The translations under genes and the position numbers were made by a program. DNA of 64,000 nucleotides from Erythrobacter sp. (GTDB lineage Bacteria > Pseudomonadota > Alphaproteobacteria > Sphingomonadales > Sphingomonadaceae): positions 60,089 through 124,088 of the forward strand of contig JAACTC010000011.1 in NCBI GenBank assembly GCA_009993635.1. Reading direction: 5' to 3'. The notes under the pieces were generated by a model. That model saw nothing but the letters and a program-made list of their open reading frames with translations. It did not search any database and was not told where the DNA came from. Below, piece after piece: positions 9,476 to 49,897 of the stretch; within the stretch, counting starts at the first letter, position 1; each line of letters begins with the position of its first letter.

Positions 9476-10141
9476 ATGAAGACACGCAAAATCCTCGCAG
9501 CATTCTGCGCACTGGGCCTGGCCGGGACCGGCCTGGTCGCCTGCACCACCGGCTTCCAGGCCGATGTTTCGCGCTTCCAGTCGAAGCTTCCGGCGCCGCA
9601 GGGCCAGACCTTCGCGGTTGTGGCCGACGATCCGGCGCTCGCCGGCGGGCTTGAGTTCAGCCAGTATGCGGGCCTCGTCAGCCAGAAGATGGCCACGCTC
9701 GGCTACACTCCCGGGACGCCCGAGAACGCCGACCTGCTCGTCCGGTTCGATTATGGCGTCGATAACGGGCGCGAACGGATCGTCGATTCGGGCCTGCGCG
9801 ATCCCTTCTTCGATCCCTGGTACCGCTATCGCCCGCGCTATTTCCGCACGCGCGACGGCCGCGTCTTCGTGGTCCGCGACCGCTCGTGGGGTTATGGTTT
9901 CTACGATCCGTGGTTCCGCGACAATGACCTGCGCAGCTACACCGTCTATACCAGCGACATAGAGCTGGAGATCGACGACCGCGCCACCGGCGAACGCCTG
10001 TTCGAAGGCACCGCCCAGGCCATGTCGCGCAGCGATCGGCTGCAGTACCTGGTGCCGAACCTGGTCGAAGCAATGTTTACCGATTTCCCCGGCAATTCGG
10101 GCGAAACCGTGCGCATCTCGATCAAGCCGGAAGACCGGTAA
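9476..10141 (+). CDS. DUF4136-like outer-membrane lipoprotein
   Basis: Signal plus lipobox MKTRKILAAFCALGLAGTGLVAC. It ends in FTDFPGNSGETVRISIKPE, which resembles the C-terminus of the paralogue at 57941..58552 ([18 protein letters not shown]). Confidence 0.55.
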   Translation: MKTRKILAAFCALGLAGTGLVACTTGFQADVSRFQSKLPAPQGQTFAVVADDPALAGGLEFSQYAGLVSQKMATLGYTPGTPENADLLVRFDYGVDNGRERIVDSGLRDPFFDPWYRYRPRYFRTRDGRVFVVRDRSWGYGFYDPWFRDNDLRSYTVYTSDIELEIDDRATGERLFEGTAQAMSRSDRLQYLVPNLVEAMFTDFPGNSGETVRISIKPEDR

Positions 10142-33552: not shown

Positions 33553-33674
33553 GCGTTACCATCTCCCCAGCGAGGATGGTTGCCGGCGAAGTAACCTTTT
33601 GCGCCATGCCACTGACGGGATGCGGGTTCTTGCGGGCTCGACAAGCCGAGGGCGAAGCGGCAAGTGTTTGCCGG

Positions 33675-34618: not shown

Positions 34619-34645
34619 CAGCATTTTGGCGCAAATGGGACCAAT
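34619..34645. repeat. left terminal inverted repeat
   Basis: CAGCATTTTGGCGCAAATGGGACCAAT matches the reverse complement of 49271..49297 at 24 of 27 positions. Confidence 0.85.
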
Positions 34646-34687
34646 CTAGAAGATGATTTTCCGCTAGATTGATGGTCGAATGGGAGC

Positions 34688-35137
34688 ATGCAGAATCCCA
34701 ACACCGTGTCGGCCCTAAAGAGCAAGCGAGGCGAGATCGCCGGTCGCGTGGATGCACTCCAGGATCAGCTTCGCCAAGTCCTGATCGACCTCGATCACGT
34801 CGACTGCACGATCCTTCTTTTCGATCCCGATGCAGAGCTGGACGAAATCAAGACGAAGCCGATGCCTCCGCGCCATCATGCGTTCAAGGGGCAGGTGACC
34901 CGTTCAATCTTGACCATGTTGAGGAAGTCGTCGGCGCCGCTGGATGGTCTGACCATTACGCTGCGTTTGATGGACGAGCGCGAACTGAATCAGTCCGACA
35001 AAAAGCTGGTGAAGACCATCCAGAAGCGTGTGGGAGCAGCCTTGAGGAATATGCGAGATCGCGGGTTGGTGAAGTCGGAGAAGGGCCACAAGGGACTGCT
35101 GATTTGGGATCTGAAGGGCGCAACACCTGATGTCTGA
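34688..35137 (+). CDS. hypothetical protein (N-terminal coiled-coil, possible winged-helix C-terminus)
   Basis: 149-aa ORF with protein-like composition. It is the first gene inside the left end and overlaps the next ORF by 8 nt. Confidence 0.5.
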   Translation: MQNPNTVSALKSKRGEIAGRVDALQDQLRQVLIDLDHVDCTILLFDPDAELDEIKTKPMPPRHHAFKGQVTRSILTMLRKSSAPLDGLTITLRLMDERELNQSDKKLVKTIQKRVGAALRNMRDRGLVKSEKGHKGLLIWDLKGATPDV

Positions 35138-35537
35138 AGAGGTCATTGATCCCTGGAGCGCTCACGTTTCTCGCTTCGACATTCGCGACGCGCAACTCAC
35201 TGGCATGAGGCCAGATGGCGAAGTGTTTGTTCGGCATGACCTAAGCCTAACGGTGCAGGAAGGCCGCTTTGAACACCTGAGCGAGGACGAGCAAGGGCAG
35301 CCGACACCTTCCCGCCTATGCTATGGCTGCACCATCCGAATTTCAGGGGCGGCGTCACCTGATTATTGGAGCGGGACCGATATGCAGATCGTCGTGACGG
35401 GCACGCATCAGAACGGCTGGCGCATCACTATCGTTGGCCAAGGTGCCATCGGTTTCGATGACGCTGGATCGGTCGGGATCGAGTTCGATCAGGCGCCGAC
35501 AATGACCGTCTACGAGAAAGAAGGCGGAGATGGATAG
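35130..35537 (+). CDS. hypothetical protein
   Basis: 135-aa ORF coupled to the previous one. No family was recognised. Confidence 0.45.
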   Translation: MSEEVIDPWSAHVSRFDIRDAQLTGMRPDGEVFVRHDLSLTVQEGRFEHLSEDEQGQPTPSRLCYGCTIRISGAASPDYWSGTDMQIVVTGTHQNGWRITIVGQGAIGFDDAGSVGIEFDQAPTMTVYEKEGGDG

Positions 35538-35685
35538 GTCGGAAAGGGATGGGCCCACCGATGTCGGGAAGGGCCGTGAATCTTGTCTGATGAAGGTTGA
35601 GGCGCTTCTGCTTGGCGCCGTGATGCTTTACGGCATCTGGTCCCTTATCTCTTCATTCTTCTGATGCAACGGCGCGCGTGCTCTA

Positions 35686-36189
35686 TTACCCTTTCACCAA
35701 CGGGATGCGGGCATGGATGGTGCCAGTGATCACCAAGAACATGACGAAAGGGGCGATGCTGATCGCAGTCGCAATGATCGCGAGCTTCACTCGCTGATAT
35801 TTCTCGCACACGATACGCGAGTTGCGCCAAACCTGTCCTAGCAGGTCGTTTCGAAGCGTTGCCTCGCTACAGTCGAGAAATTCCGCGATATAGTTCGATT
35901 CCGTTCGCTTCTGGATTTCCTTGAAGAAGATCAGGCTTTTCTCTCCTCCATTATCGTCGGGAAAGTTGGCACGGAACAGGTGGTAGTAAGACACGAGTAA
36001 GCCGATGAGCATTAGCGATCCAGGGATCGTGACATACCAGAGGAGCAAGTCGCCAGCGGAAACGTTTAGAGCCGCGATTATGAGAATGAGCGTGTTCACG
36101 CCGAAAAGGGCGTTGATCCTCGCTTCGATACGCGGAAAGAACCCCAGGACCCGATCAAGTTGACGCTGAATGATATCGATGTCCTTCAT
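35686..36189 (-). CDS. PycTM / DUF5706-like (SLATT-like) membrane effector
   Basis: 167 aa with two central TM helices and one C-terminal TM helix. SLIFFKEIQ...EATLRNDLLGQVWRNSRIVCEKYQRVKLAI resembles Pycsar TM effectors. The ATGA overlap links it to the upstream gene. Confidence 0.6.
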   Translation of the reverse strand: MKDIDIIQRQLDRVLGFFPRIEARINALFGVNTLILIIAALNVSAGDLLLWYVTIPGSLMLIGLLVSYYHLFRANFPDDNGGEKSLIFFKEIQKRTESNYIAEFLDCSEATLRNDLLGQVWRNSRIVCEKYQRVKLAIIATAISIAPFVMFLVITGTIHARIPLVKG

Positions 36190-36959
36190 CCCTTTTCCTC
36201 CCCATCCATTGCGGCCTGATCTTCATGCGCAGCCAGGGGGCATCCCCGCATCGTTCTGCAGCATTTCTCGCCGCTAGCGATGACGTCCTGCCAATATTGC
36301 TTCAGCGCTTTTCGCCGGAGGTGTTCGGCATAGGCCAGATCAACCAGTATCTGCCGTTTGTCGCAATCGGCGCGGAGCGTCCTGACCATGCGTCCCCGTG
36401 CACGCCTCTTGCATTTTCGCGGACACAGAGCGCGGCCGTTGATGAGCCGCCCCTTCTTGCCGAAGACATGCAGCTTGCGGTCGGTGATCCAGCTCGGCTC
36501 GCCCAGCCGCGCCAGCTCATACTCCTCTAGTATACCGGCTTCGCGGGCGAGGGACAGCGCGCGCTCATGATGCTTCCCTGCGCTGCCGTGATCTAAGGCC
36601 TGTTTTACGGGCCAAATTCGCGTGAGCTCTGCTACGCCTTGGCATACAAGGAACTGTTCGAGCCGGGTCCACCACTGTCGAGCGACAGCCGGCGAGTGCA
36701 CCTCAAGGGTATGGAGGCCCACGCAAAACGTCATATCGCCCTGGATGTGTCGTTCTGCGCATCTAGCAGGAAGGTCTGTTCCGGGGTTCTCCTCACGCAC
36801 CCGTGGATCGCGAGGACCGGCTATGCGCAGATGTAGTCCGTCCTGTGCCCACGGCGTTTTAGGGACGCGAGCACGACCGACGATAAGCTGCCTGTTGGCT
36901 TTTTCTATGGAGAACCAGGCTGGACGGCTGTCAGCCAGGTGCAGAACGGCTGGCTTCAC
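36186..36959 (-). CDS. hypothetical protein, 257 aa, no recognisable domain
   Basis: The ORF exactly fills the space between the cyclase and the TM effector, with a 4-nt overlap at each end (GTGA and ATGA). Confidence 0.5.
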   Translation of the reverse strand: MKPAVLHLADSRPAWFSIEKANRQLIVGRARVPKTPWAQDGLHLRIAGPRDPRVREENPGTDLPARCAERHIQGDMTFCVGLHTLEVHSPAVARQWWTRLEQFLVCQGVAELTRIWPVKQALDHGSAGKHHERALSLAREAGILEEYELARLGEPSWITDRKLHVFGKKGRLINGRALCPRKCKRRARGRMVRTLRADCDKRQILVDLAYAEHLRRKALKQYWQDVIASGEKCCRTMRGCPLAAHEDQAAMDGEEKG

Positions 36960-38548
36960 CTTTTCGCATGCGCCCGCATCGGCGGAGCGGGGTCGACTTC
37001 ATGTGCCATCATTGGTTCACCATCGACACCGGTGTTGATGTAGGGCGAAGACATAACTCCGAGCATGATTTCCGCAGTGTGCGCATTGAGGTTCTGAATG
37101 ATGCGCTCGCTGCCAAAGGCCTCGCGGATGTTTGCGGGCGATTTCTGGCGTGCATTCTCGCCAATCGCTGTTTCTACACCGTTGCACCGCCGCTGCTCCG
37201 ATTCGGAAACGCAGGTCGCCCGGCTGGCAGCTGCGCGAACACTGGCATCGCCGCGTAGACCGAGCCGACAGATGGGTGTGGTGCCGTAATCGATGCCGAT
37301 GGCAAGGCCGAGGTCCTCGATTCCAGGCAGCATTTCGCGACACAGTTCGAACGAGGAGCGAAGACCGGCTGCAGCATCCACCGACTTCTTCATCGTATCC
37401 ATTGCATTCGTCTCTGCCTTGCTTCCTTCCGCGAGCAGGCCATGGACGCAATCCCCGATGTAGCGAACCTTCCTGCCGCCGAAATCGTCGCGCAAAACCG
37501 CGCCCATCTCCGCGCGAATTACGTGCAAATTCGCCACAGCTTCGGCGATTCCGCCGGTCGCGATGGCATTATCGATGTATGCCGTGAAGTTGTCGACGTC
37601 GGCGAAGATCGATGCCAGTTCCATCCGTATCGCATTGCTCGGAGGATGGTCGGCGTAGACCAGGCCCTTGAGCGGCGGCTCCTTGTGATGGAAACGGAAG
37701 ACCGCTTCGCCACTGTCTGACTTGTTGCGCGCTTCGAGACTTTCGAGGACCGCCGCATAAGCTTTTTCGAGCCTGTCGTTGGCGCTCTGCCGAACGCCTG
37801 CTGTGATTATTTCATCGCCAAGATAGCGACGTTCGATCTCTTCGTTGAGGAACACGCTCTTGGCGAGCGGTTCGGCCACTTGCCCGATCGCGGAGGCCGC
37901 TCGTGGGCTCAGATTCAGGCCTTCATCTGTTCCGTCCGCGAGCTTGGCCGCGTGATTCGCTGGGCTGCCGATGAAGAGCGGTTCGCGTTCACCGCGCCGA
38001 CCGGAATCAATGGCGACAGCGGGTCCACTGTCGATGCCGATGCAGACACCCGTCTTGAAATTCGGATGCTTGTCGCCGAGCCTCTCGACCATCTCACGAA
38101 ACGCAGCGGAGAAAGCCACGGCAACCCGAACACGCTCGCCCTCGTTCTCGGCCCCTTCAGGAGCGAGGACCACGGCATGCAGCCTCGAGCCGTGGAAATC
38201 GACCCGCTGCATTTCGAATTCGTCGATGAGTTCGTCACAGCCCTGGTAATGAGCATGGAGAAACTCCAGGGCCCGCTTATGGCTTGCCTCCGTTTCCCGT
38301 CCTGCGTCGGTCAGGACATCGTTGAAGTCGATAAGATTAGCGTAGACGTGAACGGCATCCGTGGTGATTGCCCTATTGCGCGGGATATCGACCAGTGCGG
38401 CACGGACCGATGCGTCGGCGGCCATACCCTTCTGCACCCTAGCCTCAGTGAGGAAAGTGCGAAAGTCTTCGACCTTGATGTCGCCTTCCGGCACGCTGTT
38501 CATGAAATCCCGAATTCTGTTCCGGGCACGATCCTCGTTCCACGCCAT
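36956..38548 (-). CDS. tandem class III nucleotidyl-cyclase-homology protein (degenerate N-terminal CHD plus catalytic-looking C-terminal CHD)
   Basis: CHD1 reads VHVYANLIDFNDV...VDFHGSRLHAVV...IGIDSGPAVAI...IGSPANHAAKLA and lacks the metal-binding Asp residues. CHD2 reads SIFADVDNFTAYI...VRYIGDCVHGLL...IGIDYGTTPI and keeps them. A GGGAGG RBS precedes the ATG. Confidence 0.7.
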   Translation of the reverse strand: MAWNEDRARNRIRDFMNSVPEGDIKVEDFRTFLTEARVQKGMAADASVRAALVDIPRNRAITTDAVHVYANLIDFNDVLTDAGRETEASHKRALEFLHAHYQGCDELIDEFEMQRVDFHGSRLHAVVLAPEGAENEGERVRVAVAFSAAFREMVERLGDKHPNFKTGVCIGIDSGPAVAIDSGRRGEREPLFIGSPANHAAKLADGTDEGLNLSPRAASAIGQVAEPLAKSVFLNEEIERRYLGDEIITAGVRQSANDRLEKAYAAVLESLEARNKSDSGEAVFRFHHKEPPLKGLVYADHPPSNAIRMELASIFADVDNFTAYIDNAIATGGIAEAVANLHVIRAEMGAVLRDDFGGRKVRYIGDCVHGLLAEGSKAETNAMDTMKKSVDAAAGLRSSFELCREMLPGIEDLGLAIGIDYGTTPICRLGLRGDASVRAAASRATCVSESEQRRCNGVETAIGENARQKSPANIREAFGSERIIQNLNAHTAEIMLGVMSSPYINTGVDGEPMMAHEVDPAPPMRAHAKR

Positions 38549-38692
38549 CTTCTGCAGCCTCCCAGTTGATCGCGAATCACCGAATGGCTGCGACCTATTG
38601 ACCGGTGGAACGTTAGCAGAACATTGAGGTTTTATCCAGCCTTACGCGATGTGCGATGCGAGTCCTGTGGATTTCTGACAACCAGCACGTTC

Positions 38693-39616
38693 TCAGCCGT
38701 TGAATGGGCCCAGATCTGCGATGTGGTCGCGCAGCATGTTGCAAGCCGGCGCCATAATCGCCGCGGCATCCTTCCCTGGCTCGTAGCTGTAGGGAATGGT
38801 CGTTATGCCGGTCAGATCACTCGGTAGTCTTACCTTCTCCTCGCGCGGTTCCATCAGGATGGCCCGCTTGCGTCCAAGGCGCCCCATGAAGAGCCCCAGC
38901 TCGAAGATCACGTTATCACGGGGGGCGGGCCATTTTTGGTCGCGAACCAGGGTGACATCGTCTGTGTGGGCGATCGCGATTGCGAAATCAGAATCGTCGA
39001 CCTCGGTCTCCAGGGAATCCAGCGCGTAGCTTGCCACTTTGAAGACATCGTTCGTCCAGAGGCGGACCACGAAATCGTCATGCGCAAAGGCGTTTTCGAT
39101 TATGCGCGCTACCGCCAGGGCTTCCACCGAGCAGATGATGAAGACCCGAACCTTCTCGCGGTGCTGCCCAACCTGCTTGTTTCGCTCAAGCAGGCGACGG
39201 GCCAAGGTCCTGGCTATGACCCGGTAGATGTCGGAATGCCTCGATGCGATGTCGCATATGTCTGCGTAGCTGAGCTTCGCCACCAGAGCGGCCTCTTTCG
39301 CGACGACGTCTGCCGATCGCCGCTGCGAGGGTTCGACTACGACCATCTCGCCGACATGGTCACCCCTGCCGCGTGAAGCGACTTCACGGCCGTTTATGAT
39401 GATACCGAAGTTGCCCGCCATGATCAGATAGAGATCATTGTCGTCTCCACCTTGCCTTATGATCGCTTCGCCCTCGGTAACCCCGAGCATCTCGGCCCTG
39501 TCGGCGAGTTCCTCGGCGAGTTCGCGATTTCCGCTCACAATCTGTTGCTGCAGCATGGCGTCAATCCGATTGGCGCGGCCTGCGTCGCCCTGAAAGCGTT
39601 CGGTCAATCTGCTCAC
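38693..39616 (-). CDS. cyclic-nucleotide-binding domain plus CAP12/Pycsar-type TIR-like effector
   Basis: The N-terminal CAP_ED motif reads GDDNDLYLIMAGNF...GDHVGEMVVVEPSQRRSADVVA. The C-terminal TIR-like motif reads FAIAIAHTDD...RDNVIFELGLFMGRLGRKRAILM...LPSDLTGI. Confidence 0.75.
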   Translation of the reverse strand: MSRLTERFQGDAGRANRIDAMLQQQIVSGNRELAEELADRAEMLGVTEGEAIIRQGGDDNDLYLIMAGNFGIIINGREVASRGRGDHVGEMVVVEPSQRRSADVVAKEAALVAKLSYADICDIASRHSDIYRVIARTLARRLLERNKQVGQHREKVRVFIICSVEALAVARIIENAFAHDDFVVRLWTNDVFKVASYALDSLETEVDDSDFAIAIAHTDDVTLVRDQKWPAPRDNVIFELGLFMGRLGRKRAILMEPREEKVRLPSDLTGITTIPYSYEPGKDAAAIMAPACNMLRDHIADLGPFNG

Positions 39617-40311
39617 GTGAAAGCCCTCCAGTAGGTCGAGGAATAGATTTCCTCATCGTTATGTTGGGACCATTTCCATTTGTGCCAGATGTTCTCGCCT
39701 TGGCTGCCAAGCTTTTGAGGGTCCTTGAGCCCGTCATAGACCCGCTTCGTTATCCAGGTCGCCTTGTCCGCGCTCAGTGATGTCAACTTGGCTGCGAGAT
39801 TGGCTGCGATGCCGATCCACACGAGGTCATTATCGCCCCGCACACCAGTGCGTGCAGCGCGTATTTCGGAAGTATCGATCCCGACGACGTGCCGAATCTC
39901 GGAATCGTGTTTCCAGTGCTTCTTCATCCCGGTCTTGAGGTAGTTCTTGACCGCGTAGTTGATCTCCAAAGCGCAACTGACCGCCTGGTTGCGCTGGCTG
40001 CTGGATATAAAGATTCCCATCACCCGGTCGCCGTCGTATGAGACGATCTTCCCGCCGTGCTGCCGGATCAGCCGCGATGCCGTGTAGAGGAACGTCTTGT
40101 AGACCTCGCCGGCGAATTGCCATTTCTTCGTCGCCACGAGATCCGTGGACTGGTCGAGATCCGCATATAGGATGGTGGCCTTTTCGAACCGAACCGCGTC
40201 GTTGGCTAGTTTCAGATCGCTGGCATTCGGAACCACCTGTCCGTCGCGCACGCTCCACTTGGAGCCGAAGGTGTCGGCCGCGTTCTTCTTGATATCGTCC
40301 GCAACGCTCAC
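39613..40311 (-). CDS. Pycsar-type small class III nucleotidyl cyclase (PycC-like)
   Basis: 232 aa with a single CHD: ATILYADLDQSTDL...YDGDRVMGIF...VGIDTSEIRAARTG...IGIAANLAAKL. It overlaps the downstream effector by 4 nt. Confidence 0.75.
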   Translation of the reverse strand: MSVADDIKKNAADTFGSKWSVRDGQVVPNASDLKLANDAVRFEKATILYADLDQSTDLVATKKWQFAGEVYKTFLYTASRLIRQHGGKIVSYDGDRVMGIFISSSQRNQAVSCALEINYAVKNYLKTGMKKHWKHDSEIRHVVGIDTSEIRAARTGVRGDNDLVWIGIAANLAAKLTSLSADKATWITKRVYDGLKDPQKLGSQGENIWHKWKWSQHNDEEIYSSTYWRAFT

Positions 40312-40335
40312 GCTGTTCCAATCCTTTGTCGAATT

Positions 40336-41532
40336 TTACACCTTCGGCGTTCGCTCGACGATGCCATCATCGTCGATGTCGTAACGATACAGGTGGAGCT
40401 TGCGGGTCGAGATTAGCCTAATGGCCTGCTCCACCGACGAGGGTGAGACTAGGAACCACTCCCGCGGGTCGACCTTGCGTCCGAAGCGGTCAGGTAAATG
40501 CACATCGACGCAGGCCGCTGAGAAGAACCGGTGTAGCAGCCCCTCTATTTTCTTGGGTGGGACGCCCCGAGTGTCATATTCATCGACGAGCTCCGCTTTC
40601 GACATGAGAAAGGTCGGATCGTTGTCGGCAGCGCTGAGCCTGCCTGCAGCTGATCCGGTGGTGGAACCGACCTTTACCATGTGGCTTTTCAGATCAGCCA
40701 GTGCTGGGTCTTCGGAGAGGGTTCTGGCGACATAGATGCGCCCGGTCACCGGAGCGGCCTGACCGTCGAACAGCGGGCCGGCTTGTGGTGACAGAACGCG
40801 GCGGCTGTTGTCGGCGCGGTAGAGTGCCTTACCGAAGGACCGCAGCAGATGACCGCTCTCGGTTCCGTTGTCATAGATGATGCGCAGCCTCGCGTCCTTC
40901 TGGTCACCCTTGGTTCGCGTCATCCAGGCGCCCACTTCGGCAATGTAAGCAAGCTGACCGTCGAGGATGAACATATCTCCGGCAGCGATCTGGTATGTGG
41001 AGCTGGTAGGCACGGTAGAGCGGACACCGGAGGCAATGTCCGCAATGGCCTCGTCGAAAATAGGAGCGAATTTTTCGAATTCGGCGCACGGCGTCCTTTC
41101 GGCGATCATATCCGCCTCGGCCTTCGGGACAGGAGCTGGCGTGGCCCGGAATTCGAAGATGTGATCATCGGGCGTGGCCAGAAGATCGTCATCGTCCGCG
41201 ATGAGTTCATCTAGGCTGGCCGGCACTTGATCCATTCGCCCTGCGCTTTGTTGTAGTAGCCCGTATTGATCTAGATCCCGAAGGGCGCTGACCTTATTCT
41301 CATCTTCTCGGAAGGCATTGAGCCGAACGCCTAGCCGCATTTCCTCCGGTGATCGGGACGCGGAGTCTGGAGGACGCCCATGGCGTTCTCGGAACGACAC
41401 GATCTCGAGGAACAGCCGCGCCTGATCGTCCGCCTGGGTCGCGGCCTTCTTGACCTCGGGAACGAACAGGTCATCCTTCGCGGCGATGAGCTCGTCGAGC
41501 TTCTCGTAGAACAGGTCAGCCGAGCGAGACAT
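40336..41532 (-). CDS. T5orf172 / MUG113 (GIY-YIG superfamily) domain protein with helicase-associated-like N-terminal motif
   Basis: The C-terminal part reads GRIYVARTL...MVKVGSTTGSAAGRL...IEGLLHRFF...REWFLVSPSSVEQAI. Its start overlaps the helicase stop by 1 nt. Confidence 0.7.
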   Translation of the reverse strand: MSRSADLFYEKLDELIAAKDDLFVPEVKKAATQADDQARLFLEIVSFRERHGRPPDSASRSPEEMRLGVRLNAFREDENKVSALRDLDQYGLLQQSAGRMDQVPASLDELIADDDDLLATPDDHIFEFRATPAPVPKAEADMIAERTPCAEFEKFAPIFDEAIADIASGVRSTVPTSSTYQIAAGDMFILDGQLAYIAEVGAWMTRTKGDQKDARLRIIYDNGTESGHLLRSFGKALYRADNSRRVLSPQAGPLFDGQAAPVTGRIYVARTLSEDPALADLKSHMVKVGSTTGSAAGRLSAADNDPTFLMSKAELVDEYDTRGVPPKKIEGLLHRFFSAACVDVHLPDRFGRKVDPREWFLVSPSSVEQAIRLISTRKLHLYRYDIDDDGIVERTPKV

Positions 41533-43589
41533 CAGGCTGCTTCATCCCGTTCCTTTTCCTTCTGACGCCGGATCGCAGCCGCCCTAATCCATGCCAGAGA
41601 CTCAGCCATCCGCTTCTCGATCGGATCGGGCGAATTGATGTTCGGCTCCTTTCCGTGCTGTTCCTTGAACGCACGGATGCGCGGCACTTGTGCCAGAGCT
41701 TCGGCTTCGCTGATTGTGATCTTGGTCTCGGCGAGCGTCTGGTGGATACGTCGCAAGACAGATTCGCCGAGCGACTTCGACAGTATTTCGTAGGATTGCT
41801 GGAACGGGTTCACCTGGTCGATCAGATCGATGCTGAGTTCGGGCATCGTGATGAACTTTGAAGTCAGCTTCAGAAGCTGCGCATGCGCCTTCTGGCCATC
41901 GGTCGCATCATCGTCCTCCGACGAGGCCTGGCCTGTCTCGCGGTTCGCCTGTGTGAGCTGGGCCAGAACCGCACGTCGTGCAACGACATTCTGGCGGATT
42001 GCTTCGATGTCGTCCTCGTTATCCGCGATGTCGGGATAGCGCTTGGCGATGAGGTCAGGGATCAGATGTTGATTGATCGTCTCGGCCGGGAACTCGTCGG
42101 GGATGAGGCTGGCGCGCATGACCTGATTGTCCTGCAGGACCGCGGCCATGAGATCGGTCATATCCGTCTGAATGATTTCCTCGGCACGCTTGCTGGTCGG
42201 CTCCTTCAAGCCCGTCACTTCGATGGTGGGCTCCGGCTCGAGCAGGTCGATCCGGGTAGAGGGCCGCGCGACGCCATCGAAACGATCGTCCGATGCCTTG
42301 GTCTTGAAGTTGAAATTGGGAGCGAGCACCTGCTCCATGAGTAGCGAGCAGGCGATCGCCTTGAGCATATCATTGACCGCTGTGCGCACGACCTCGTCGG
42401 CGGTATCTGGTTCCGCGATCAGATTGGTGAATTGTGCATGGCTCTTGCCCGGGGCGTCGCGTGTCGCTCGCCCAATGATCTGGACGACCTCGGTGAGCGA
42501 ACCACGATAGCCGATGGTCAGCGCATGCTCGCACCAGATCCAGTCGAAGCCCTCTTTGGCCATGCCCAGCGCGATGACAATGTCGAGGTCATCCTTTTCC
42601 TCCACGCTCCGGAGGCCGTTAAGCACCTTCTGCTGTGTGTCGGGGGTTACGAGATCGGCGATCTTGAGGATGCGACCATCGGACGTCCGAAGATGTTGGA
42701 ACCCGGTGACGGGATCGATCTCCACGACATCCCCGAGCACATCGAGGATGCTGTTCATCTCCTTGATCTTGTCGCCGAGCGCCGCTTGCGAGTTGACGTT
42801 GGGTATGTGGATGATCGTTTTCTTCGTCGGGTCCAGGACCTCGCCGATCGCGCTTAGATAGCTCCCGTGGTAGAAGTGGTAGCCAATCCCGAGCGTCTTG
42901 AGATGCTCGTAACCGGACAGCTGCTCGTAGTAGGTGTAGGTAACCCGGGTGAACTTCTCCTCGTCCTCGGGCCGGAGGACGGGAACTTGGTCGCCACGGA
43001 AGTAGGACCCGGTCATCGCCACGAGGTGGGCCGACCCTTCGCTCATCACTGAGCGGACGAGCTCACCGAGGCGATTGTCGGCGTCGGCCGAGACATGGTG
43101 GAACTCGTCCACCGCGAGCAGGCAACCGTGGAAGGCAGCGATTCCCGCATCGCTTTCCATGATCCGATCGAAGGCATGACGCAGGGTCGAATGCGTGCAG
43201 ACGATGATCTCGTCGTCGCTTTCCATGAAGCGGAGGAATGCGTTGATCTTGCCGCCTTCGCCCCCGAGCATATCGCACAGGTTGTTGCGTGGTGACACTG
43301 TCCAGTCATGGTCGAAGCCGTGCTGAGTGAGGCTGGTCGACCGGAACGAGTTGCCGATCGATTTCTCCGGCACCGCCACGATGACCTTACGGATGCCCTG
43401 ATTGTAGAGCTTGTCGAGCCCGAGGAACATGAGCGCGCGGCTCTTGCCCGAAGCCGGCGGCGACTTGATCAGAAGATACTGGGAGTTTCGAGCATCGTAG
43501 GCGCGGGCCTGCATTGCGCGCATGCCCATATCGTTCGTCGACTTGCTGGCGCCGGTGGCGCCGTATTCGACAGTGATGAAATCGGGCAT
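41532..43589 (-). CDS. SF2 DExH-box helicase (ResIII-like)
   Basis: Motif I is SPPASGKS, motif II is AVDEFHH, motif III is AMTGS and motif VI is QIIGRATR. A C-terminal extension of about 200 aa follows. Confidence 0.85.
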   Translation of the reverse strand: MPDFITVEYGATGASKSTNDMGMRAMQARAYDARNSQYLLIKSPPASGKSRALMFLGLDKLYNQGIRKVIVAVPEKSIGNSFRSTSLTQHGFDHDWTVSPRNNLCDMLGGEGGKINAFLRFMESDDEIIVCTHSTLRHAFDRIMESDAGIAAFHGCLLAVDEFHHVSADADNRLGELVRSVMSEGSAHLVAMTGSYFRGDQVPVLRPEDEEKFTRVTYTYYEQLSGYEHLKTLGIGYHFYHGSYLSAIGEVLDPTKKTIIHIPNVNSQAALGDKIKEMNSILDVLGDVVEIDPVTGFQHLRTSDGRILKIADLVTPDTQQKVLNGLRSVEEKDDLDIVIALGMAKEGFDWIWCEHALTIGYRGSLTEVVQIIGRATRDAPGKSHAQFTNLIAEPDTADEVVRTAVNDMLKAIACSLLMEQVLAPNFNFKTKASDDRFDGVARPSTRIDLLEPEPTIEVTGLKEPTSKRAEEIIQTDMTDLMAAVLQDNQVMRASLIPDEFPAETINQHLIPDLIAKRYPDIADNEDDIEAIRQNVVARRAVLAQLTQANRETGQASSEDDDATDGQKAHAQLLKLTSKFITMPELSIDLIDQVNPFQQSYEILSKSLGESVLRRIHQTLAETKITISEAEALAQVPRIRAFKEQHGKEPNINSPDPIEKRMAESLAWIRAAAIRRQKEKERDEAA

Positions 43590-43602
43590 GCTACTCTCCG
43601 GT

Positions 43603-46335
43603 TCAGGCGGCTTTTGCCGCTTTCTTGGTCATACGGGCGTAAAGCTTGAACAGGTGCTCGAGGCGCTCAGTATCGTCCTTAAATTGACGTCCGATATAGA
43701 TTGTCTCGAGATAGTCATCGAGGTTCCGGTGGGCTTGAAGAAGGTCGTCCGGCATTGTCTTAGGATTATATAGCCAACCCAAGGTTTTGCCGTCGGCTAC
43801 GTAAGGCTCTCTCGTCCGGACGATGCCAAGTGCATGTTCCTCAAGGTTCACTTTCTGCTCGTGGGAGAGTGATGGCATCGGAAAGTTGTTGTAGACCAGT
43901 GTGTTCGAATACCGATAATCGCTCTTCAGTCTTCCACCGACTGTAGCGAGCCAGACCGCATGAATTCTTGTCGACAGGACTGAAAGAAGCCACGTTGGCG
44001 GATCGTAAATTGCCAAAGCCGCATCATTGATAATGACTGTCTCCGAAAGAAAGCCGCAAGGCAGGTAAAGCCTATTTTCAGAAGAGACACGAGGGACGAT
44101 TATCGCAGGCTTTCCGTAATCTTGGATCTGAATGAAGCGATGCGCAGTGTCAGCCTTAGCCCGCGTGGTGGGAGCTTTAGCCTGCAGACGAAAAGCACGA
44201 CTCGCAGCTACTCGCTCTGCGATTAAAGGAATTGATAAAGCTTCGTCGAAGTCAGCATCTTCAATCCACAGACAGTATCTTTCCTTGCTCTGGAGGTAAT
44301 CCTTGGAGCCATAATACCGTTTTATAAACTTGGAGGAATCTGGATTCCTATCTCGCATTTCACGAGCCTCGTCGGGTGTCAGTATCAGACCCCCTCCATC
44401 AGATGCCATATTGCCTTTTTCCATCCGAGGCAGGCCGCTAAGATTTAAGGATGAACGACCCACCCAGACGGTGTCCATCTCAATAAGATACGGACCGATG
44501 TTTCTTACTTGTCTGGAGCTATCGTGAGATATGACGCGCCTATTGATATTCGATCTTGGGGAGATCGCAACGATTACACATATTACAGCGGCATTCTTAG
44601 CCGCATTGTTTCGCCATTTGAACGCTTCATGAGCGAATAGAACCTGGCTACCATGGTCAAAGACTGCCGGCCATAACAAGGCGACCTGTTCACCTTGCGC
44701 GATGCTGTTGGTTGCGACGAACGCTGACTCTGCGCCAGACCTTTCGCCATATTCTGCTGCTTTTAGGAACCATCCAGCTACATAGTCTAAATTTTTATAG
44801 TTGACCTTGTAGGGGGTAAAAACCGCTCGCAGATCGCTTTTTTGCTCGGGCGTCTGCATGCTGCTGCCAAGATAGGGTGGATTTCCAACGACGTAAATTT
44901 CAGCCTCTTTCTCTCGAGGACACACCTCTGACCAGTCGACGCGCAGAGCATTACCAACAACGATGCTGCCTGCATCCGTAAGCGGCAGTGCCGGCGTCGG
45001 CGCCGAGCAGATCTCGTCCAGCTTGCGGTTCATCTGATATTGCGAAATCCACAGCGACAGCTTGGCGGTCTCGCAGGCGAAATCAACCGGGTCGATGCCA
45101 TAGAAGTTGCTGATCTTGATGCCGGTCTGGTAATCGGCCAGTTGCAACTGACCCTTGCGTTTTACGTCACGCATGCGCCGGAAAGCCTCGGTCTCGATCA
45201 GCCGCAGCTCCCGATAGGCGATGATCAGGAAATTGCCCGATCCGCATGCGGGGTCGAACACGCGGATGCGCGAAATGCGCTCGACCAGCTTCTCGAGCGC
45301 CTTCACGTTGTCGCCGGCGGCAGTGAGCTGTTCACGAAGGGAGCCAAGGAACAACGGCTCCAGAACCTTCATGATGTTGGGCACGGAGGTGTAGTGCATG
45401 CCGAAGTCGGCGCGCATATCGGTCTGCACGATGGCCTGGATCATCGAGCCGAAGATATCGGCATGGATCTGGTCCCAGTGCAGCTCTGCCGCCTCGAGCA
45501 GCAGTCGCCGGGCTTTCCGGTTGAATTCGGGTATCTCGGTGTGATCGCGGAAAAGCCCGCCATTCACATAGGGGAAGTCGGCTGCGATACGCTGCGAGCG
45601 GACTCCTTGATCGGCCCGGGCGTCCTTGTCGGCCAAGTCGAGGGCAAGGAACACATCCTCGATGACGCGCTTGGTGTCCGATCCATCGACCTTCATCGCT
45701 TCGCGACGGAGGGTGTTGAGGAACAGCTTGTCGGTGAAGATGCCTGTGTCTTCTGCGAACATGCAGAACAGTAGCCGTGTCATGAACAGGTTGAGGTCGT
45801 GGACCTTGTCTGCGCCCCAGGTCGGATTGGCATCACGGATGGCGTCGTGGAACTTGGCCATGTGCCTCGCGGCCTTGACGTCGGCGGCAGTCTCAGGGGC
45901 AGGCTTGAACCGCTCCACGCCGAACATCGGAAGCAGGAAGTCGTAGTTGACCGGGAGCTCGGCCAGCTTATCGAAGCTGGGGGTCTCGTCGTTCTTGAGA
46001 TCGACGGCGAGAAATTCGTCACCGTCCGTGCTCATCACGAACCGAGGCGCATTCTTCGCAGAGCGCCCCTTCTTACCGACCAGCGAAGCCTTCAACGAAG
46101 TGACTGTATCCTGGACTTCGCCCTTCTGCGCCGCGCGGTAGAGGAGCTTTTTGGGCCAAAGAATGTCGGCGTCCACGAGCCCTTCGGGATGCTTCATCCT
46201 CAGCTTGTTGACCTCGTTCCTGGAAGCCTCGTAGGCCTCCATCAGCCTGAAGGGAAACTCGTGCAGCGAGCAGTTTTCCGCCGACACGTCGGCAACCAGC
46301 AGATCCAGCTGCTTCTCGATTTCGATTGTGTTCAT
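43603..46335 (-). CDS. MmeI/PglX-like gamma-class N6-adenine DNA methyltransferase (911 aa; N-terminal nuclease motif apparently degenerate)
   Basis: Motif I is VFDPACGSGNFLI and motif IV is VVGNPPYLG. The N-terminal region is MmeI-like and there is a large C-terminal TRD-like region. The start at MNTIEIE (46335) overlaps the upstream stop (ATGA). The track start at 46455 is an extension. Confidence 0.85.
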   Translation of the reverse strand: MNTIEIEKQLDLLVADVSAENCSLHEFPFRLMEAYEASRNEVNKLRMKHPEGLVDADILWPKKLLYRAAQKGEVQDTVTSLKASLVGKKGRSAKNAPRFVMSTDGDEFLAVDLKNDETPSFDKLAELPVNYDFLLPMFGVERFKPAPETAADVKAARHMAKFHDAIRDANPTWGADKVHDLNLFMTRLLFCMFAEDTGIFTDKLFLNTLRREAMKVDGSDTKRVIEDVFLALDLADKDARADQGVRSQRIAADFPYVNGGLFRDHTEIPEFNRKARRLLLEAAELHWDQIHADIFGSMIQAIVQTDMRADFGMHYTSVPNIMKVLEPLFLGSLREQLTAAGDNVKALEKLVERISRIRVFDPACGSGNFLIIAYRELRLIETEAFRRMRDVKRKGQLQLADYQTGIKISNFYGIDPVDFACETAKLSLWISQYQMNRKLDEICSAPTPALPLTDAGSIVVGNALRVDWSEVCPREKEAEIYVVGNPPYLGSSMQTPEQKSDLRAVFTPYKVNYKNLDYVAGWFLKAAEYGERSGAESAFVATNSIAQGEQVALLWPAVFDHGSQVLFAHEAFKWRNNAAKNAAVICVIVAISPRSNINRRVISHDSSRQVRNIGPYLIEMDTVWVGRSSLNLSGLPRMEKGNMASDGGGLILTPDEAREMRDRNPDSSKFIKRYYGSKDYLQSKERYCLWIEDADFDEALSIPLIAERVAASRAFRLQAKAPTTRAKADTAHRFIQIQDYGKPAIIVPRVSSENRLYLPCGFLSETVIINDAALAIYDPPTWLLSVLSTRIHAVWLATVGGRLKSDYRYSNTLVYNNFPMPSLSHEQKVNLEEHALGIVRTREPYVADGKTLGWLYNPKTMPDDLLQAHRNLDDYLETIYIGRQFKDDTERLEHLFKLYARMTKKAAKAA

Positions 46336-46652
46336 GATTCGCGCGCGCGGGTCCGTTTGGCCAAGGTCTGAGCGCCGTGAGCGTCGGCAGCTATTTGCGA
46401 TACTTCGTCTGCCTTCGGGATTGGCAGCAGGTCGGTGCCAATGGCGACCATACACTGCGCAAAGAAAGAGGCGGTGAACCGCCCACGGGCCACCTTGTTA
46501 CGCAGATTGGCTACGTTGTCGCTCACCCCGATGGCAGCGAGCTTATCGACCAGAACTTCGTAAGAGACCCCCTTACGCATCATTTCAGCGCGCAGGAGGT
46601 TCTTCACCAATTGGTCCCACGCGGCTTCGTCTATCTGTTCGATTTCCTTCAT
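46332..46652 (-). CDS. small DUF6471-like HTH protein
   Basis: MKEIEQIDEAAWDQLVKNLLRAEMMRKGVSYEVLVDKLAAIGVSDNVANLRNKVARGRFTASFFAQCMVAIG. It is translationally coupled to the methyltransferase. Confidence 0.6.
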   Translation of the reverse strand: MKEIEQIDEAAWDQLVKNLLRAEMMRKGVSYEVLVDKLAAIGVSDNVANLRNKVARGRFTASFFAQCMVAIGTDLLPIPKADEVSQIAADAHGAQTLAKRTRARES

Positions 46653-46719
46653 ATGGCCGTTATAGGACGCACAAGTTCCAAACGGCAAGCGTCGGCAGTT
46701 ATGTGCACCACCACAGACG

Positions 46720-48039
46720 ATGATATTGCTGGTTGACAGGCCACGTGGCACCATCGTATATGGTGGTGTAGGCAACGTCAAACGGTGGTCCTTGGGTCAA
46801 CACTTTCTCCTCTCAGCGCGCTACCGCGATCTCCCGATCGCAAAGATCGCGCGCCTGAGCGAGGCAGAGGCCTACGATATCTTCCTGCATGCTCGATGGA
46901 TGGATGGGGTGCCGAAGTGTCCCGAATGCGATTCAGGGGCATGGACGCTGGGCGATCACTCCTGTCCCGGCGACAAGCGCCAGTTCCGCTGCAAGAGCAA
47001 TCCGTGCAGGAAGAAATTCTCTGTCACGAGCGGAACGCTGCTTCACAGCCGGAAGAAGGACTTCGTGACGATCCTGGTTGCCATCAGGTTGTTCATTTCG
47101 GGCGCGAAGGGGATCTCGTCGATTCAGCTGGGCGCTGATGGCGACATGGCTATCAAGACCGCATGGGTCCTCGCTCACAAGATGCGCGAGGCGCAGATCA
47201 AGAACCAACTGGGCCGGCAGCTTTCGGGCATAGTAGAGATCGATGGCTCTACCTATGGTGGCTACTATCACCAGGTGAACGAGAAGTCGGAGCGCATCGA
47301 CCGGCGTAAACTCGGGAACATCACCGGCAAGGAGATGTCGGTGGTCGTGGCGCGCGAACGTAGCACGAAGGATCGGGTTGGTCTGAGTGTTTGCACCGTC
47401 GTGCCGCACGAGGCAGATTCACGTCCCTTCATCGTGGACAGCGTCGACCGCTTCGCCAAGGTCTATGCGGACGATGGCAGCCATTGGGATGCGCTGGCGG
47501 CGGCTTTCGACATAGATCAGGTCAACCATTCCCAGCGCTATTATGACAAGGGCATCTGCACGAACCAGGCGGAGAGCTACTTTTCGCGCGTCGATCGGAT
47601 GGAGATGGGAACGCACCATCATATCGCCGGGGATTACCTGTGGGGCTACGCCTGCGATGCGGTGTGGCGCGAGGACAAGCGCAGGGACACCCAGAGGGAG
47701 CGGTTCCAGTCGATCCTGATCGGTCTGCTCGGCAATCCCGTTTCCCGCACGATGAAGGGATACTGGCAACGCCATCTGGAAGTGGCTTCGGAAGAGCCCA
47801 ACCTCGAAGCAGAGCTGCTGGTCGAGGATGAGAACCTTGCCGATGATGAGGCCGAAGGCATGAGCCAGAAGGACATCATCGCGTTGTTCGGCCGGGACGC
47901 TCTGCCTGCTCAGCGCAGGCAGCCGGGTGGAAGGCAATGGAAGGCGCGGAAGCCGTTCGTCCCGAAGAAGCCGGATATCAGGCCCAAACCGTGGTCGGAG
48001 TTCCAGCAGCCGCGAGGCCTGCCTTCGTTCATTCCGTAG
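46720..48039 (+). CDS. IS1595-family DDE transposase (with C-terminal extension)
   Basis: The N-terminal zinc ribbon reads RWMDGVPKCPECDS...FRCKSNPCRKKFSVTSGT. It is followed by an ISXO2-like DDE domain (IVEIDGSTYGG...VYADDGSHWD...NQAESYFSR). Confidence 0.8.
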   Translation: MILLVDRPRGTIVYGGVGNVKRWSLGQHFLLSARYRDLPIAKIARLSEAEAYDIFLHARWMDGVPKCPECDSGAWTLGDHSCPGDKRQFRCKSNPCRKKFSVTSGTLLHSRKKDFVTILVAIRLFISGAKGISSIQLGADGDMAIKTAWVLAHKMREAQIKNQLGRQLSGIVEIDGSTYGGYYHQVNEKSERIDRRKLGNITGKEMSVVVARERSTKDRVGLSVCTVVPHEADSRPFIVDSVDRFAKVYADDGSHWDALAAAFDIDQVNHSQRYYDKGICTNQAESYFSRVDRMEMGTHHHIAGDYLWGYACDAVWREDKRRDTQRERFQSILIGLLGNPVSRTMKGYWQRHLEVASEEPNLEAELLVEDENLADDEAEGMSQKDIIALFGRDALPAQRRQPGGRQWKARKPFVPKKPDIRPKPWSEFQQPRGLPSFIP

Positions 48040-48110
48040 CCTTGTGCTGAATGCCGGCCGAGTGTCAGCATTAACGCGATGATGACCATGCGGATGCCAT
48101 CTGTCGCCGC

Positions 48111-49040
48111 ATGAACTTGATTCGACTATTTCTGGCGGCGTTTCTTCTGGTTGCCTGCGTGTCCTCACCCGCACACGCTGTAACTACGCAGTCTGACGCC
48201 GCTCCTTCAGAGAATGCCGTAAGTAGCAGAAGCCCAGACGTAGGTGACGGAGCCCAGCCAGCTTCCAAGGCCGACGACGGCGAGGACGACAAAAACCCAA
48301 GCCGCCGGACCGTCAACGGCCAAAGATTTATCGATACAGACCTTGAATGGCCGATACAGAGGCCATGCCGCGAGGGTGAGGAAGATCGCTACAGTGATCT
48401 GTGTGCTCAGTGGCACGCCGCTAAAGGCTCCCAAAAATCGGCGTTCTACGCGTTTTGGGGTGTATTGATCGGAATTGCTAGCACTGTGATCTTGGTTGTC
48501 ACGCTCATATTCGTGAAGCGTGGCACCGATGCTGCGGTGAATGCTGTCGCCGTTGCTACCGATGCCCAGAAACTTCAGCGCGCCGAATTCCAGCAACGAA
48601 TGCGCCCTCGATGTGCGGTAATCGGAATCAGCCTGGTCGAAGACTGGGCGGCGAGCGTGAAAGCTGGCAGTCCTATCCCTATGCGGATACAGCTCGAGAA
48701 TCTCGGCAGCACCACTGGTCGCCATCTCTCTCTGCTTCTCGATGGCATTGCGTTTCTCGCCCTTGATGGCACCGAAGTCTGGAGCGAAAAGCGCATAATT
48801 CCCCTCGCTCCTTTGCGTGCTGGACAACAACGTGAGGAGCTCATGCTGATTGAGCATACCGCGGCTGGATCCGAGATTCATGGGGTCGAGGTAAGGGGTC
48901 GCATTGGATCCATTTCCGACAAGGTCGGCGAGGAGCCGGGGCTTTCCTTCATTGAGTATTTCGTATGGCGTGAGAACTCGCTCCATCGTGGCAGCCCTGA
49001 CTTGGTCGAGCGGCCACATGAGAAAGACCCCGAGCATTGA
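48111..49040 (+). CDS. hypothetical lipoprotein/membrane protein (strand ambiguous, see findings)
   Basis: The lipobox signal is MNLIRLFLAAFLLVAC, with one internal TM helix. A 20-codon sample shows purine-rich position 1 and higher GC3 than the antisense frame. No RBS was seen. Confidence 0.4.
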   Translation: MNLIRLFLAAFLLVACVSSPAHAVTTQSDAAPSENAVSSRSPDVGDGAQPASKADDGEDDKNPSRRTVNGQRFIDTDLEWPIQRPCREGEEDRYSDLCAQWHAAKGSQKSAFYAFWGVLIGIASTVILVVTLIFVKRGTDAAVNAVAVATDAQKLQRAEFQQRMRPRCAVIGISLVEDWAASVKAGSPIPMRIQLENLGSTTGRHLSLLLDGIAFLALDGTEVWSEKRIIPLAPLRAGQQREELMLIEHTAAGSEIHGVEVRGRIGSISDKVGEEPGLSFIEYFVWRENSLHRGSPDLVERPHEKDPEH

Positions 49041-49211
49041 TACGATCACGACCGTGATCTGAAGCTTCCGAGCTCTTGGTGTAGAAATTTCCTTTTCCAT
49101 ATTCCGTCTCCTTCGAAGACGGCAACACGGGTCGGGCTGTAGGCTCGCGATTATCGCGCGCCGTCAAAAATCGCGTAAGTTTCGCTAAGGGGCGATGGCG
49201 GATGTCCGAAA

Positions 49212-49245
49212 TTTTCTAGGGGTAGGCTCGCCTACCCCTAGAAAA
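49212..49245. repeat. perfect 16-bp-stem palindrome near the right end of the element
   Basis: TTTTCTAGGGGTAGGC-TC-GCCTACCCCTAGAAAA. Confidence 0.9.
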
Positions 49246-49270
49246 CCCCTCCTCATGAGAAAGAGGTCCT

Positions 49271-49297
49271 ATTGGTCCCCTCTGCGCTAAAATGCTG
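49271..49297. repeat. right terminal inverted repeat
   Basis: The reverse complement is CAGCATTTTAGCGCAGAGGGGACCAAT. Confidence 0.85.
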
Positions 49298-49305
49298 GAG
49301 TTCCA
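49298..49305. repeat. right copy of the 8-bp target-site duplication GAGTTCCA
   Basis: Identical to 34611..34618. Confidence 0.85.
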
Positions 49306-49897
49306 GCGCCCGGTGCTCGATTCGCTGCGCCAGCCGCTGGAGACGGGCAAGGTCGACGTCGCGCGCGCCAACGCGCATGTCAGCTTCCCCGCGCGCGTCC
49401 AGCTGATCGCGGCGATGAACCCGTGCCGCTGCGGCCACCTGGGCGATCCCTCGCTCGCCTGCAGCCGCGCGCCCAAATGCGCTGCCGATTACCAGAGCAA
49501 GGTCAGCGGGCCGATGCTCGACCGGATCGACCTGCATGTCGAGGTCGAGCCTGTCAGCGCAGCCGACCTCGCGCTGCCGCCGCCCGCAGAAGGCAGCGCG
49601 CAGGTCGCCGCGCGGGTCGCCGCGGCGCGCGAAGTGCAGGGCGCACGCGGGGCAGAGGCAGGCGTGCGCACCAATGCCGAGCTGGACGGCGAGATGCTGG
49701 AACGCTTCGCCACGCCCGACGAGGCGGGGCGCGCGCTGCTGATGCAGGCGGCGGAGCGAATGCGGCTTTCGGCGCGCAGCTACGTCCGGATGCTGCGGGT
49801 CGCGCGCACGATCGCGGACCTCGCCGGCGCGGAGCAGATCGGCCGCGTCCACGTGGCCGAGGCGCTGAGCTACCGGCGGCAGGCACCGCGGGCCTGA
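49298..49897 (+). pseudogene. comM: comM/yifB Mg-chelatase-like ATPase, 3' fragment
   Basis: EFQRPVLDSLRQPLETGKVDVARANAHVSFPARVQLIAAMNPCRCG... continues the AAA+ domain in frame with the 5' fragment once the element is removed. Confidence 0.88.

Follow-up and report, generated by a model that had tools for sequence, protein, structure and literature searches.

An apparently intact DnmA(YeeA)/YeeB/YeeC-family gene trio on an IS1595-family cargo transposon of Erythrobacter sp.

Positions 40336 to 46652 of a 64,000-nucleotide stretch of Erythrobacter sp. DNA (assembly GCA_009993635.1, contig JAACTC010000011.1; the whole stretch is referred to here as the window) hold four genes that a first-pass annotation, made from the sequence alone, had described as a split, restriction-like defence system fitting none of the types known to it. 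The locus raises the question of whether these genes form a new kind of system, which of them belong together, and what they could do. We find that the three genes in 40336-46335, encoding an MmeI-like methyltransferase, a helicase, and a T5orf172 protein, almost certainly belong, intact, to the DnmA(YeeA)/YeeB/YeeC family of three-gene modules, as judged from their sequences and arrangement. Direct homology links the helicase to YeeB and the T5orf172 protein to YeeC, and the apparent misfit with known systems is not a sign of novelty. The four open reading frames (ORFs), identified from the ORF list and by reading of the junctions, are co-oriented on the minus strand, tightly packed, and intact:

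46332..46652, minus strand: DUF6471 helix-turn-helix (HTH) protein, 106 amino acids (aa); Pfam PF20075, E 6e-27
43603..46335, minus strand: DnmA/YeeA-like MmeI-family gamma-class N6-adenine methyltransferase with a fused target-recognition domain (TRD), 910 aa
41532..43589, minus strand: YeeB-like superfamily 2 (SF2) DExH ATPase/translocase, 685 aa, 52% identity to YeeB
40336..41532, minus strand: YeeC-like T5orf172 protein, 398 aa; Pfam T5orf172 and MUG113

The four genes are coupled as first described: the TGA of the HTH gene and the ATG of the methyltransferase gene overlap as ATGA (reading cgaatcATGAac), a 13-nucleotide (nt) spacer that includes GGAG (accggagagtagc) separates the methyltransferase and helicase genes, and the helicase TGA shares one base with the T5orf172 ATG (TGATG). 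Pfam also agrees with the original domain calls for all four proteins, and only the length of the methyltransferase, given as 911 aa, needs correction to 910 aa. Overlooked at that stage was that only 24 nt lie between the T5orf172 stop codon and the GTG start of a Pycsar cyclase gene, with no terminator-like site between the two in a promoter and terminator scan. The same scan, in which the counts of such sites did not exceed those in shuffled sequence, gave one promoter-like site about 100 nt upstream of the HTH gene.

The family assignment is carried in the first place by direct comparison with YeeB and YeeC, using sequences taken from the text of Fig. S5 of a 2023 mBio paper (PMC9973331). 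In blastp, the helicase is 51.9% identical to Bacillus subtilis YeeB over 648 columns and 51.5% identical to Vibrio crassostreae YeeB over 693 columns, and the YeeC proteins of the same two species share 30% and 32% identity with the T5orf172 protein (E 5e-45 and 1e-51, respectively). The gene arrangement was described by Morgan et al. in 2009 (PMC2731913), who divided the MmeI homologues into two sets, with and without the PD-ExK motif, and reported that a YeeB-like helicase of the DEAD type and a YeeC-like protein with GIY-YIG motifs "invariably" flank the motif-less set. The 2023 paper confirmed the dnmA-yeeB-yeeC synteny widely and called the cluster a relic (PMC9973331); our literature search found no later paper naming or reconstituting a YeeA/B/C system.

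A survey of co-conservation, set beforehand as a test of the unit, retained the trio and not the quartet. A protein search with the helicase returned at least 8000 candidates, all with E below 1e-5, and a helicase alignment scan of one genome per GTDB species gave at least 566 loci; 80 of these were kept, and their stop-to-stop ORFs were searched with the four window proteins. The 80 loci cover Pseudomonadota, Bacteroidota, Bacillota, Actinomycetota, Chlamydiota, Planctomycetota, Saccharibacteria, Melainabacteria, Nitrospirota, and others, with helicase identities to the window mostly around 50%. A T5orf172 homologue directly follows the helicase gene in 78 loci, the other two ending at a contig edge, and 70 loci have an MmeI-like gene upstream in the same orientation, the other 10 having less than 2.4 kb of upstream sequence. 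The helicase is also present on 265 plasmids, where the Prokaryotic Genome Annotation Pipeline (PGAP) labels the trio as DNA methyltransferase, DEAD/DEAH box helicase, and GIY-YIG nuclease family protein. Because the DUF6471 HTH gene was recovered in just one surveyed locus (L001), whereas the order of the trio is kept, the conserved unit is three genes and not the four proposed initially.

The surroundings of the DUF6471 gene point the same way. In other lineages the trio is preceded by unrelated small XRE-type HTH genes, or by none, and in the marine metagenome contigs L085-L090, where the trio and two Pycsar systems are about 90% identical to those of the window, both the HTH gene and a transposase gene that adjoins it in the window are missing, with homology starting exactly at the methyltransferase ATG. 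DUF6471 genes on plasmids adjoin unrelated genes, and all three that are linked to the trio (in the window, in L001, and in metagenome contig L084) adjoin an IS1595-family transposase gene. On this distribution, the DUF6471 protein is a lineage-specific accessory linked to an IS1595-family transposon lineage, outside the conserved core; it is plausibly a regulator. Within the trio itself, the methyltransferase and helicase genes are not always adjacent: 24 of 70 loci have additional DNA between them. Recurrent inserts among L009-L078 encode RhuM-like proteins (~340 aa, eight loci) and AlbA_2-like, putatively ATP-binding proteins (~500 aa, three loci), for example at 4574-5656 in L077 and 8256-9908 in L047; these names come from reading the sequences and not from a database search. 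RhuM-like and AlbA_2-like genes also hitch-hike in Type I operons.

The methyltransferase has all five MmeI domains in Pfam (MmeI_N, MmeI_hel, MmeI_Mtase, MmeI_TRD, and MmeI_C; E 1e-99 to 7e-17), and its aa 43-904 align with MmeI itself (PDB 5hr4; phmmer, E 2e-162). The motifs FDPACGSGNF and NPPY (485-488) are intact. Two segments of the gene are of particular relevance:

45832..46335, minus strand: degenerate MmeI_N (former nuclease) domain, aa 1-168; Pfam MmeI_N, E 7e-20
43914..44840, minus strand: TRD segment, ~aa 499-807; blastn, overlapping Pfam MmeI_TRD at aa 621-823

The initial description of the enzyme as nuclease-dead is borne out by the 5hr4 alignment, in which the D70/E80/K82 stretch of MmeI (VDLFWPGILLIEMK) pairs with DADILWPKKLLYRAA, such that D70 is kept, E80 is replaced by R, and K82 by A. 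When 60 trio-linked homologues are aligned with the window protein, 51 of the 61 sequences have K or R in place of E80. At the position of K82, the six most frequent residues are A, E, V, T, C, and G, which together account for 56 sequences and do not include K; the N-domain residues around the lost E-x-K positions are well conserved. The methyltransferase's own nuclease is predicted from these residues to be catalytically dead, a loss that appears to be family-wide, and we propose that the degenerate MmeI_N domain is a docking or regulatory domain.

The second segment, of about 925 bp, lacks DNA homology (blastn) between loci that are 76 to 90% identical on both of its flanks, and because homology is absent here but present on either side, the gap indicates that the TRD has been replaced by recombination between close relatives. 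Such TRD swapping is typical of restriction systems under diversifying selection. In L084, the MmeI-like gene is called as two ORFs of 835 and 72 aa (7257-9987 of that contig), which suggests a frameshift or stop codon near the C-domain in that metagenome assembly.

A check against PADLOC, which the first-pass annotation had recommended, recognized only part of the module. The model REase_MTase_IIG (PDLC03598) matches the methyltransferase over its full length with 910 bits, the similarity of this protein to PglX and DrmMI being weak in PADLOC and NCBIfam and attributed to the methyltransferase fold. Among the PADLOC and NCBIfam models, the helicase gives nothing beyond weak matches to PbeA, Cas3, DpdF, and dnd_restrict, and the T5orf172 and DUF6471 proteins give no matches. 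With a full-length PDLC03598 match and no PADLOC models for its partners, automated annotation would probably report the locus as a stand-alone Type IIG restriction-modification (RM) system and thus miss the helicase and GIY-YIG partners.

For the helicase, Pfam ResIII scores barely over its cut-off, and DEAD and Helicase_C fall under theirs. The family alignment shows conservation of PPASGKS, DEFHH, MTGSY, and QIIGRATRD, corresponding to SF2 motifs I, II, III, and VI. The T5orf172 protein matches Pfam T5orf172 (E 9e-8) and MUG113 (E 3e-7), both over their cut-offs and both families that we take to belong to the GIY-YIG clan. It is composed of an N-terminal motif shared with the helicase, a conserved middle domain, and a C-terminal T5orf172 putative nuclease domain:

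40411..40737, minus strand: T5orf172 domain proper, aa 266-374; Pfam and family alignment

The signature GxIYV...KIG...R...PREWF is conserved in the family alignment, with G264, Y267, K287, G289, R298, E330, and P356-R357-E358-W359-F360 invariant, and the AlphaFold2 (AF2) model has a mean predicted local distance difference test score (pLDDT) of 81.5. No Mrr or PD-ExK domain was detected by Pfam in the helicase or the T5orf172 protein, and a PDB sequence search with the two proteins returned nothing useful.

The motif shared by these two proteins, which we did not find in the papers on the cluster, links the C terminus of YeeB to the N terminus of YeeC:

41565..41723, minus strand: C-terminal ~50-aa helix-loop-helix motif of the helicase, aa 623-675; hhalign
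41293..41442, minus strand: N-terminal motif of the T5orf172 protein, aa 31-80; hhalign

The two stretches are homologous by hhalign (probability 95%, E 4e-8), and the same C-terminal region is again the top match when the whole helicase profile is used (89%); the methyltransferase profile, taken as a negative control, gives no hhalign match. Both are confident helix-loop-helix structures in the AF2 models, with pLDDT above 88 for residues 31-90 of the T5orf172 protein. Pfam finds only a sub-threshold match to HA (PF03457; E 0.11), and we have not adopted this as the identity of the motif. All 79 aligned helicases carry the motif, as does the protective V. crassostreae YeeB; B. subtilis YeeB ends just before it, its alignment stopping at aa 638 of the window protein. 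A docking role would fit the motif well, and its loss might explain the negative results obtained in B. subtilis.

The trio is also mobile. Reading of the junctions shows that the genes lie within an IS1595-family cargo transposon inserted in comM:

34619..49297, no strand assigned: IS1595-family cargo transposon, 14,679 bp; junctions, inverted-repeat search, second copy in L084
34611..34618, no strand assigned: left 8-bp target-site duplication GAGTTCCA, within comM; junction reading
49298..49305, no strand assigned: right 8-bp target-site duplication GAGTTCCA; junction reading
33519..34618, plus strand: 5' part of comM/yifB (Mg-chelatase-like); Pfam ChlI, Mg_chelatase profile positions 1-120
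49298..49897, plus strand: 3' part of comM; Mg_chelatase profile positions 115-206, Mg_chelatase_C
46720..48039, plus strand: IS1595-family (ISXO2-like) DDE transposase, divergent from the HTH gene; DDE_Tnp_IS1595 E 2e-29, Zn_ribbon_IS1595 E 8e-7

Imperfect terminal inverted repeats of ~27 bp are present at 34619-34645 (the left end, CAGCATTTTGGCGCAAATGGGACCAAT) and 49271-49297, and removal of the element together with one copy of the duplication restores the comM reading frame (...LDELPEFQRPVLDSLRQPLETG). These ends, missed by a generic repeat finder, became apparent from the comM junctions, and a pattern search confirmed them. GC content in the island is 0.55-0.60, compared with ~0.65 in the flanks. 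A second copy, at 4432-19955 of L084, has the same inverted repeats and its own 8-bp duplication (CACTTTTG) at a different insertion site; it shares the transposase, the DUF6471 gene with its ATGA coupling, and the trio, and carries a partly different cargo, with DUF4365 and DUF4062 genes in place of Pycsar. In L001, a related IS1595 transposase gene again lies divergently beside the DUF6471 gene. The HTH gene probably arrived with the IS1595-family transposon that carried the trio and two Pycsar systems into comM.

The Pycsar systems accompany the trio but are known systems in their own right:

39613..40311, minus strand: Pycsar system 1, PycC; PADLOC PycC, 331 bits
38693..39616, minus strand: Pycsar system 1, cyclic nucleotide monophosphate (cNMP)-binding/TIR effector; PADLOC TIR effector, 442 bits
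36956..38548, minus strand: Pycsar system 2, PycC; PADLOC PycC, 617 bits
36186..36959, minus strand: Pycsar system 2, E2-like protein; PADLOC E2, 307 bits; Pfam E2-ntca and E2-Crich
35686..36189, minus strand: Pycsar system 2, PycTM effector; PADLOC 2TM effector, 236 bits; Pfam PycTM

System 1 stays collinear with the trio in L085-L090, where the identity is 90.6%. The L086 version of the E2-like gene of system 2 is shorter, and in L085, L087, and L088 the gene is absent or disrupted. The ends of the transposon hold further genes: 34688-35137, at the left end, encodes a 149-aa protein without a family match that is conserved in L084 (295 bits), and 48111-49040, at the right end, encodes a 309-aa predicted membrane protein without a family match, whose place in L084 is taken by another gene. 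A perfect 16-nt inverted repeat (TTTTCTAGGGGTAGGC / GCCTACCCCTAGAAAA) with a 2-nt loop lies at 49212-49245, some 50 nt in from the right end, and may be a terminator or a transposase-binding site.

What, then, could the trio do? On the comparisons above, we estimate a probability of roughly 65% that it is an ATP-dependent RM-like module. The first-pass annotation had assigned marking and recognition to the methyltransferase and translocation and cleavage to the helicase and T5orf172 protein, and this division of labour survives as the best available reading, although it is not new: it repeats nearly word for word the proposal of Morgan et al. that the MmeI-like subunit provides specificity and protective modification, and that a separate helicase and endonuclease cut (PMC2731913). 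In such a module, the methyltransferase would methylate one adenine in an asymmetric site, like MmeI and DnmA, and so mark host DNA; on an unmodified site it would recruit or license YeeB, which would translocate along the DNA using ATP, with YeeC delivering the cut. Single-strand modification would imply that discrimination of self from non-self after replication needs communication between two unmodified sites, as in Type III and Type ISP systems. The assembly interfaces would likely be the degenerate N-domain of the methyltransferase and the ~50-aa motif of the YeeB C terminus and YeeC N terminus. We count in favour of an active system the retained catalytic motifs, the TRD exchange, the mobile defence island with two Pycsar systems, the inserted RhuM-like and AlbA_2-like genes, and the absence of the shared motif from the phenotypically silent B. 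subtilis YeeB, together with the finding that yeeAB of V. crassostreae gives resistance to one phage group (Piel et al. 2021).

Several observations weigh against this reading. The B. subtilis cluster had no effect on plasmid transformation (Nye et al. 2020) and gave no protection against three phages (PMC9973331), deletion of dnmA was harmless (PMC9973331; Nye et al. 2020), and Bacillus phage genomes show no avoidance of the DnmA motif (PMC9973331). The Vibrio data concern yeeA and yeeB, not yeeC (Piel et al. 2021), and in the literature searched, neither cleavage nor translocation nor complex formation has been shown biochemically for any member of the family. The AF2 model of the helicase is poor (pLDDT 64), with only generic SF2 matches in Foldseek (BLM, Pol theta, EcoR124I HsdR, LlaBIII, and RadD) from which no sub-family could be assigned. 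The AF2 model of the T5orf172 protein, including its middle domain (aa ~150-250), gave no significant fold match in the PDB by Foldseek (best E 0.047), and it is clan membership alone that suggests nuclease activity for this protein.

How else might the locus be explained? It is unlikely, in our estimate, that the trio is a relic in which the methyltransferase acts as an orphan epigenetic regulator and the other two genes are remnants, without function, of an earlier restriction system, a proposal already made for dnmA-yeeB-yeeC of B. subtilis. The lack of restriction or phage protection in B. subtilis would fit such a relic, as would the effect of N6-methyladenine (m6A) on promoter activity in that species (PMC9973331; Nye et al. 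2020); in the window, however, all three genes are full length with every catalytic motif present, and the helicase keeps the C-terminal motif that is missing in B. subtilis YeeB. Moreover, conservation of the trio order with ~50% helicase identity across many phyla and 265 plasmids is unexpected for decaying genes, yeeAB is protective in Vibrio, and the trio of the window is cargo of a recently mobile transposon with two further defence systems. We give similarly little weight to a non-degradative or abortive mode of action, whether a BREX-like replication block or one in which the T5orf172 protein is a DNA-binding or sensor component or a toxic effector. T5orf172 has indeed been regarded as a DNA-binding domain whose activity is uncertain (PMC9973331), no YeeC has been shown to have nuclease activity, Bacillus phages show no depletion of the DnmA site, and the methyltransferase has its weak similarity to PglX and DrmMI. 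Nonetheless, the GIY-YIG-type residues are strictly conserved, no homologues of PglZ, BrxC, BrxL, or DrmA/B/C are present among the ten island proteins scanned, and both the TRD swapping and the types of hitch-hiking gene resemble classical RM loci.

The two remaining alternatives would redraw the boundaries of the system. That the DUF6471 HTH protein is an obligatory fourth component could be argued from its ATGA coupling to the methyltransferase gene in the window and L084 and from its presence in L001, L084, and the window. We regard this as improbable, because the HTH gene was found in only 1 of 80 surveyed loci and is missing from L085-L090 despite ~90% identity over the trio; its place elsewhere is taken by unrelated XRE-type genes or by none, and DUF6471 genes occur beside unrelated plasmid genes, with the trio-linked cases (3 of 3) adjoining an IS1595-family transposase gene. 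Least credible of all is that the methyltransferase is by itself an ordinary Type IIL/IIG enzyme and the two downstream genes are unrelated neighbours: the full-length 910-bit match to PDLC03598 and the presence of all five MmeI domains speak for it, but R and A stand in place of E80 and K82 here, with the same loss across the family, no endonuclease activity was seen for YeeA or a Moraxella homologue when each was expressed alone (PMC2731913), and the linkage to the helicase and GIY-YIG genes is near-invariant.

Beyond the reading as an RM-like module, a more specific and rather doubtful possibility is that the trio represents a distinct, unclassified ATP-dependent RM type, in which the dead nuclease domain would serve as a hub, the shared motif would dock motor and nuclease, and loss of the motif would explain the silent B. 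subtilis YeeB. If this were true, the window copy on its 14.7-kb transposon would be a good model, and even otherwise an intact and mobile copy is a reasonable substrate for reconstituting the mechanism. The trio and its proposed division of labour were already published in 2009, revisited in 2020 and 2023, and tied genetically to phage resistance in Vibrio. Members of the family are very common, occurring in at least 566 species genomes, on 265 plasmids, and in more than 8000 protein clusters. The TRD swap, the defence transposon, and the shared motif are possibly of more interest than the module itself: the motif common to helicase and putative nuclease suggests both a route for complex assembly and a reason for the inactivity of the B. 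subtilis copy, and the cargo-carrying IS1595-family transposon moves three defence systems as a unit and disrupts comM.

Among known systems, DnmA(YeeA)-YeeB-YeeC of B. subtilis and V. crassostreae has the same three proteins in the same order, including an MmeI homologue without the PD-ExK E and K. The window helicase differs from B. subtilis YeeB in being full length with the C-terminal motif, as in Vibrio, and compared with known YeeA/B/C clusters the window has a different TRD, an extra DUF6471 HTH gene in the operon, and an IS1595-family transposon on which the trio rides with two Pycsar systems. MmeI proper (Type IIL/IIG) shares the domain order of N-domain, helical spacer, gamma-class N6A methyltransferase, TRD, and C-domain, and MmeI-like single-strand modification of an asymmetric site is probable for the window protein. 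However, MmeI needs no ATP and cleaves ~20 bp away from its site, whereas in the window protein E-x-K is lost and cleavage is presumably performed by the separate ATP-dependent helicase and GIY-YIG proteins. A stand-alone Type IIL/IIG identity was rejected on the replaced E and K and on the lack of endonuclease activity in motif-less homologues (PMC2731913).

The locus had been set apart from BREX, Type I, and Type ISP at the outset, and each of these exclusions holds. For BREX and DISARM, PADLOC finds only the weak PglX and DrmMI matches among the ten island proteins, with no PglZ, BrxC, or BrxL or any further component of either system, and the NCBIfam BREX scores are far under their cut-offs. 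Type I (HsdM/S/R) systems likewise have separate subunits, an ATP-dependent SF2 motor, cleavage that presumably needs the methyltransferase complex, and similar hitch-hiker genes. They have an HsdS, whereas the TRD here is fused to the methyltransferase, and HsdR combines motor and PD-ExK nuclease, whereas the window has a motor without a detectable nuclease domain and a separate, putative GIY-YIG-type nuclease, with methylation probably of one strand; Pfam and PADLOC give no HsdS or HsdR match among the ten proteins. Type ISP enzymes (LlaGI and LlaBIII) similarly bring together a nuclease, an SF2 helicase, and an MmeI-related methyltransferase and TRD acting on asymmetric, singly methylated sites, and are the likely mechanistic analogue of the trio, with translocation and communication between two sites. 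They do so in one polypeptide with an Mrr-type nuclease, whereas the window has three separate ORFs, a putative GIY-YIG-type nuclease, and neither an Mrr nor a PD-ExK domain in the helicase or third protein. The carrier, finally, resembles IS1595-family insertion sequences with passenger genes, sharing their zinc-ribbon transposase and terminal inverted repeats and, at each of its two independent insertions, an 8-bp target duplication; it departs from them in a very large cargo (~13 kb, three defence systems) that differs between the two copies.

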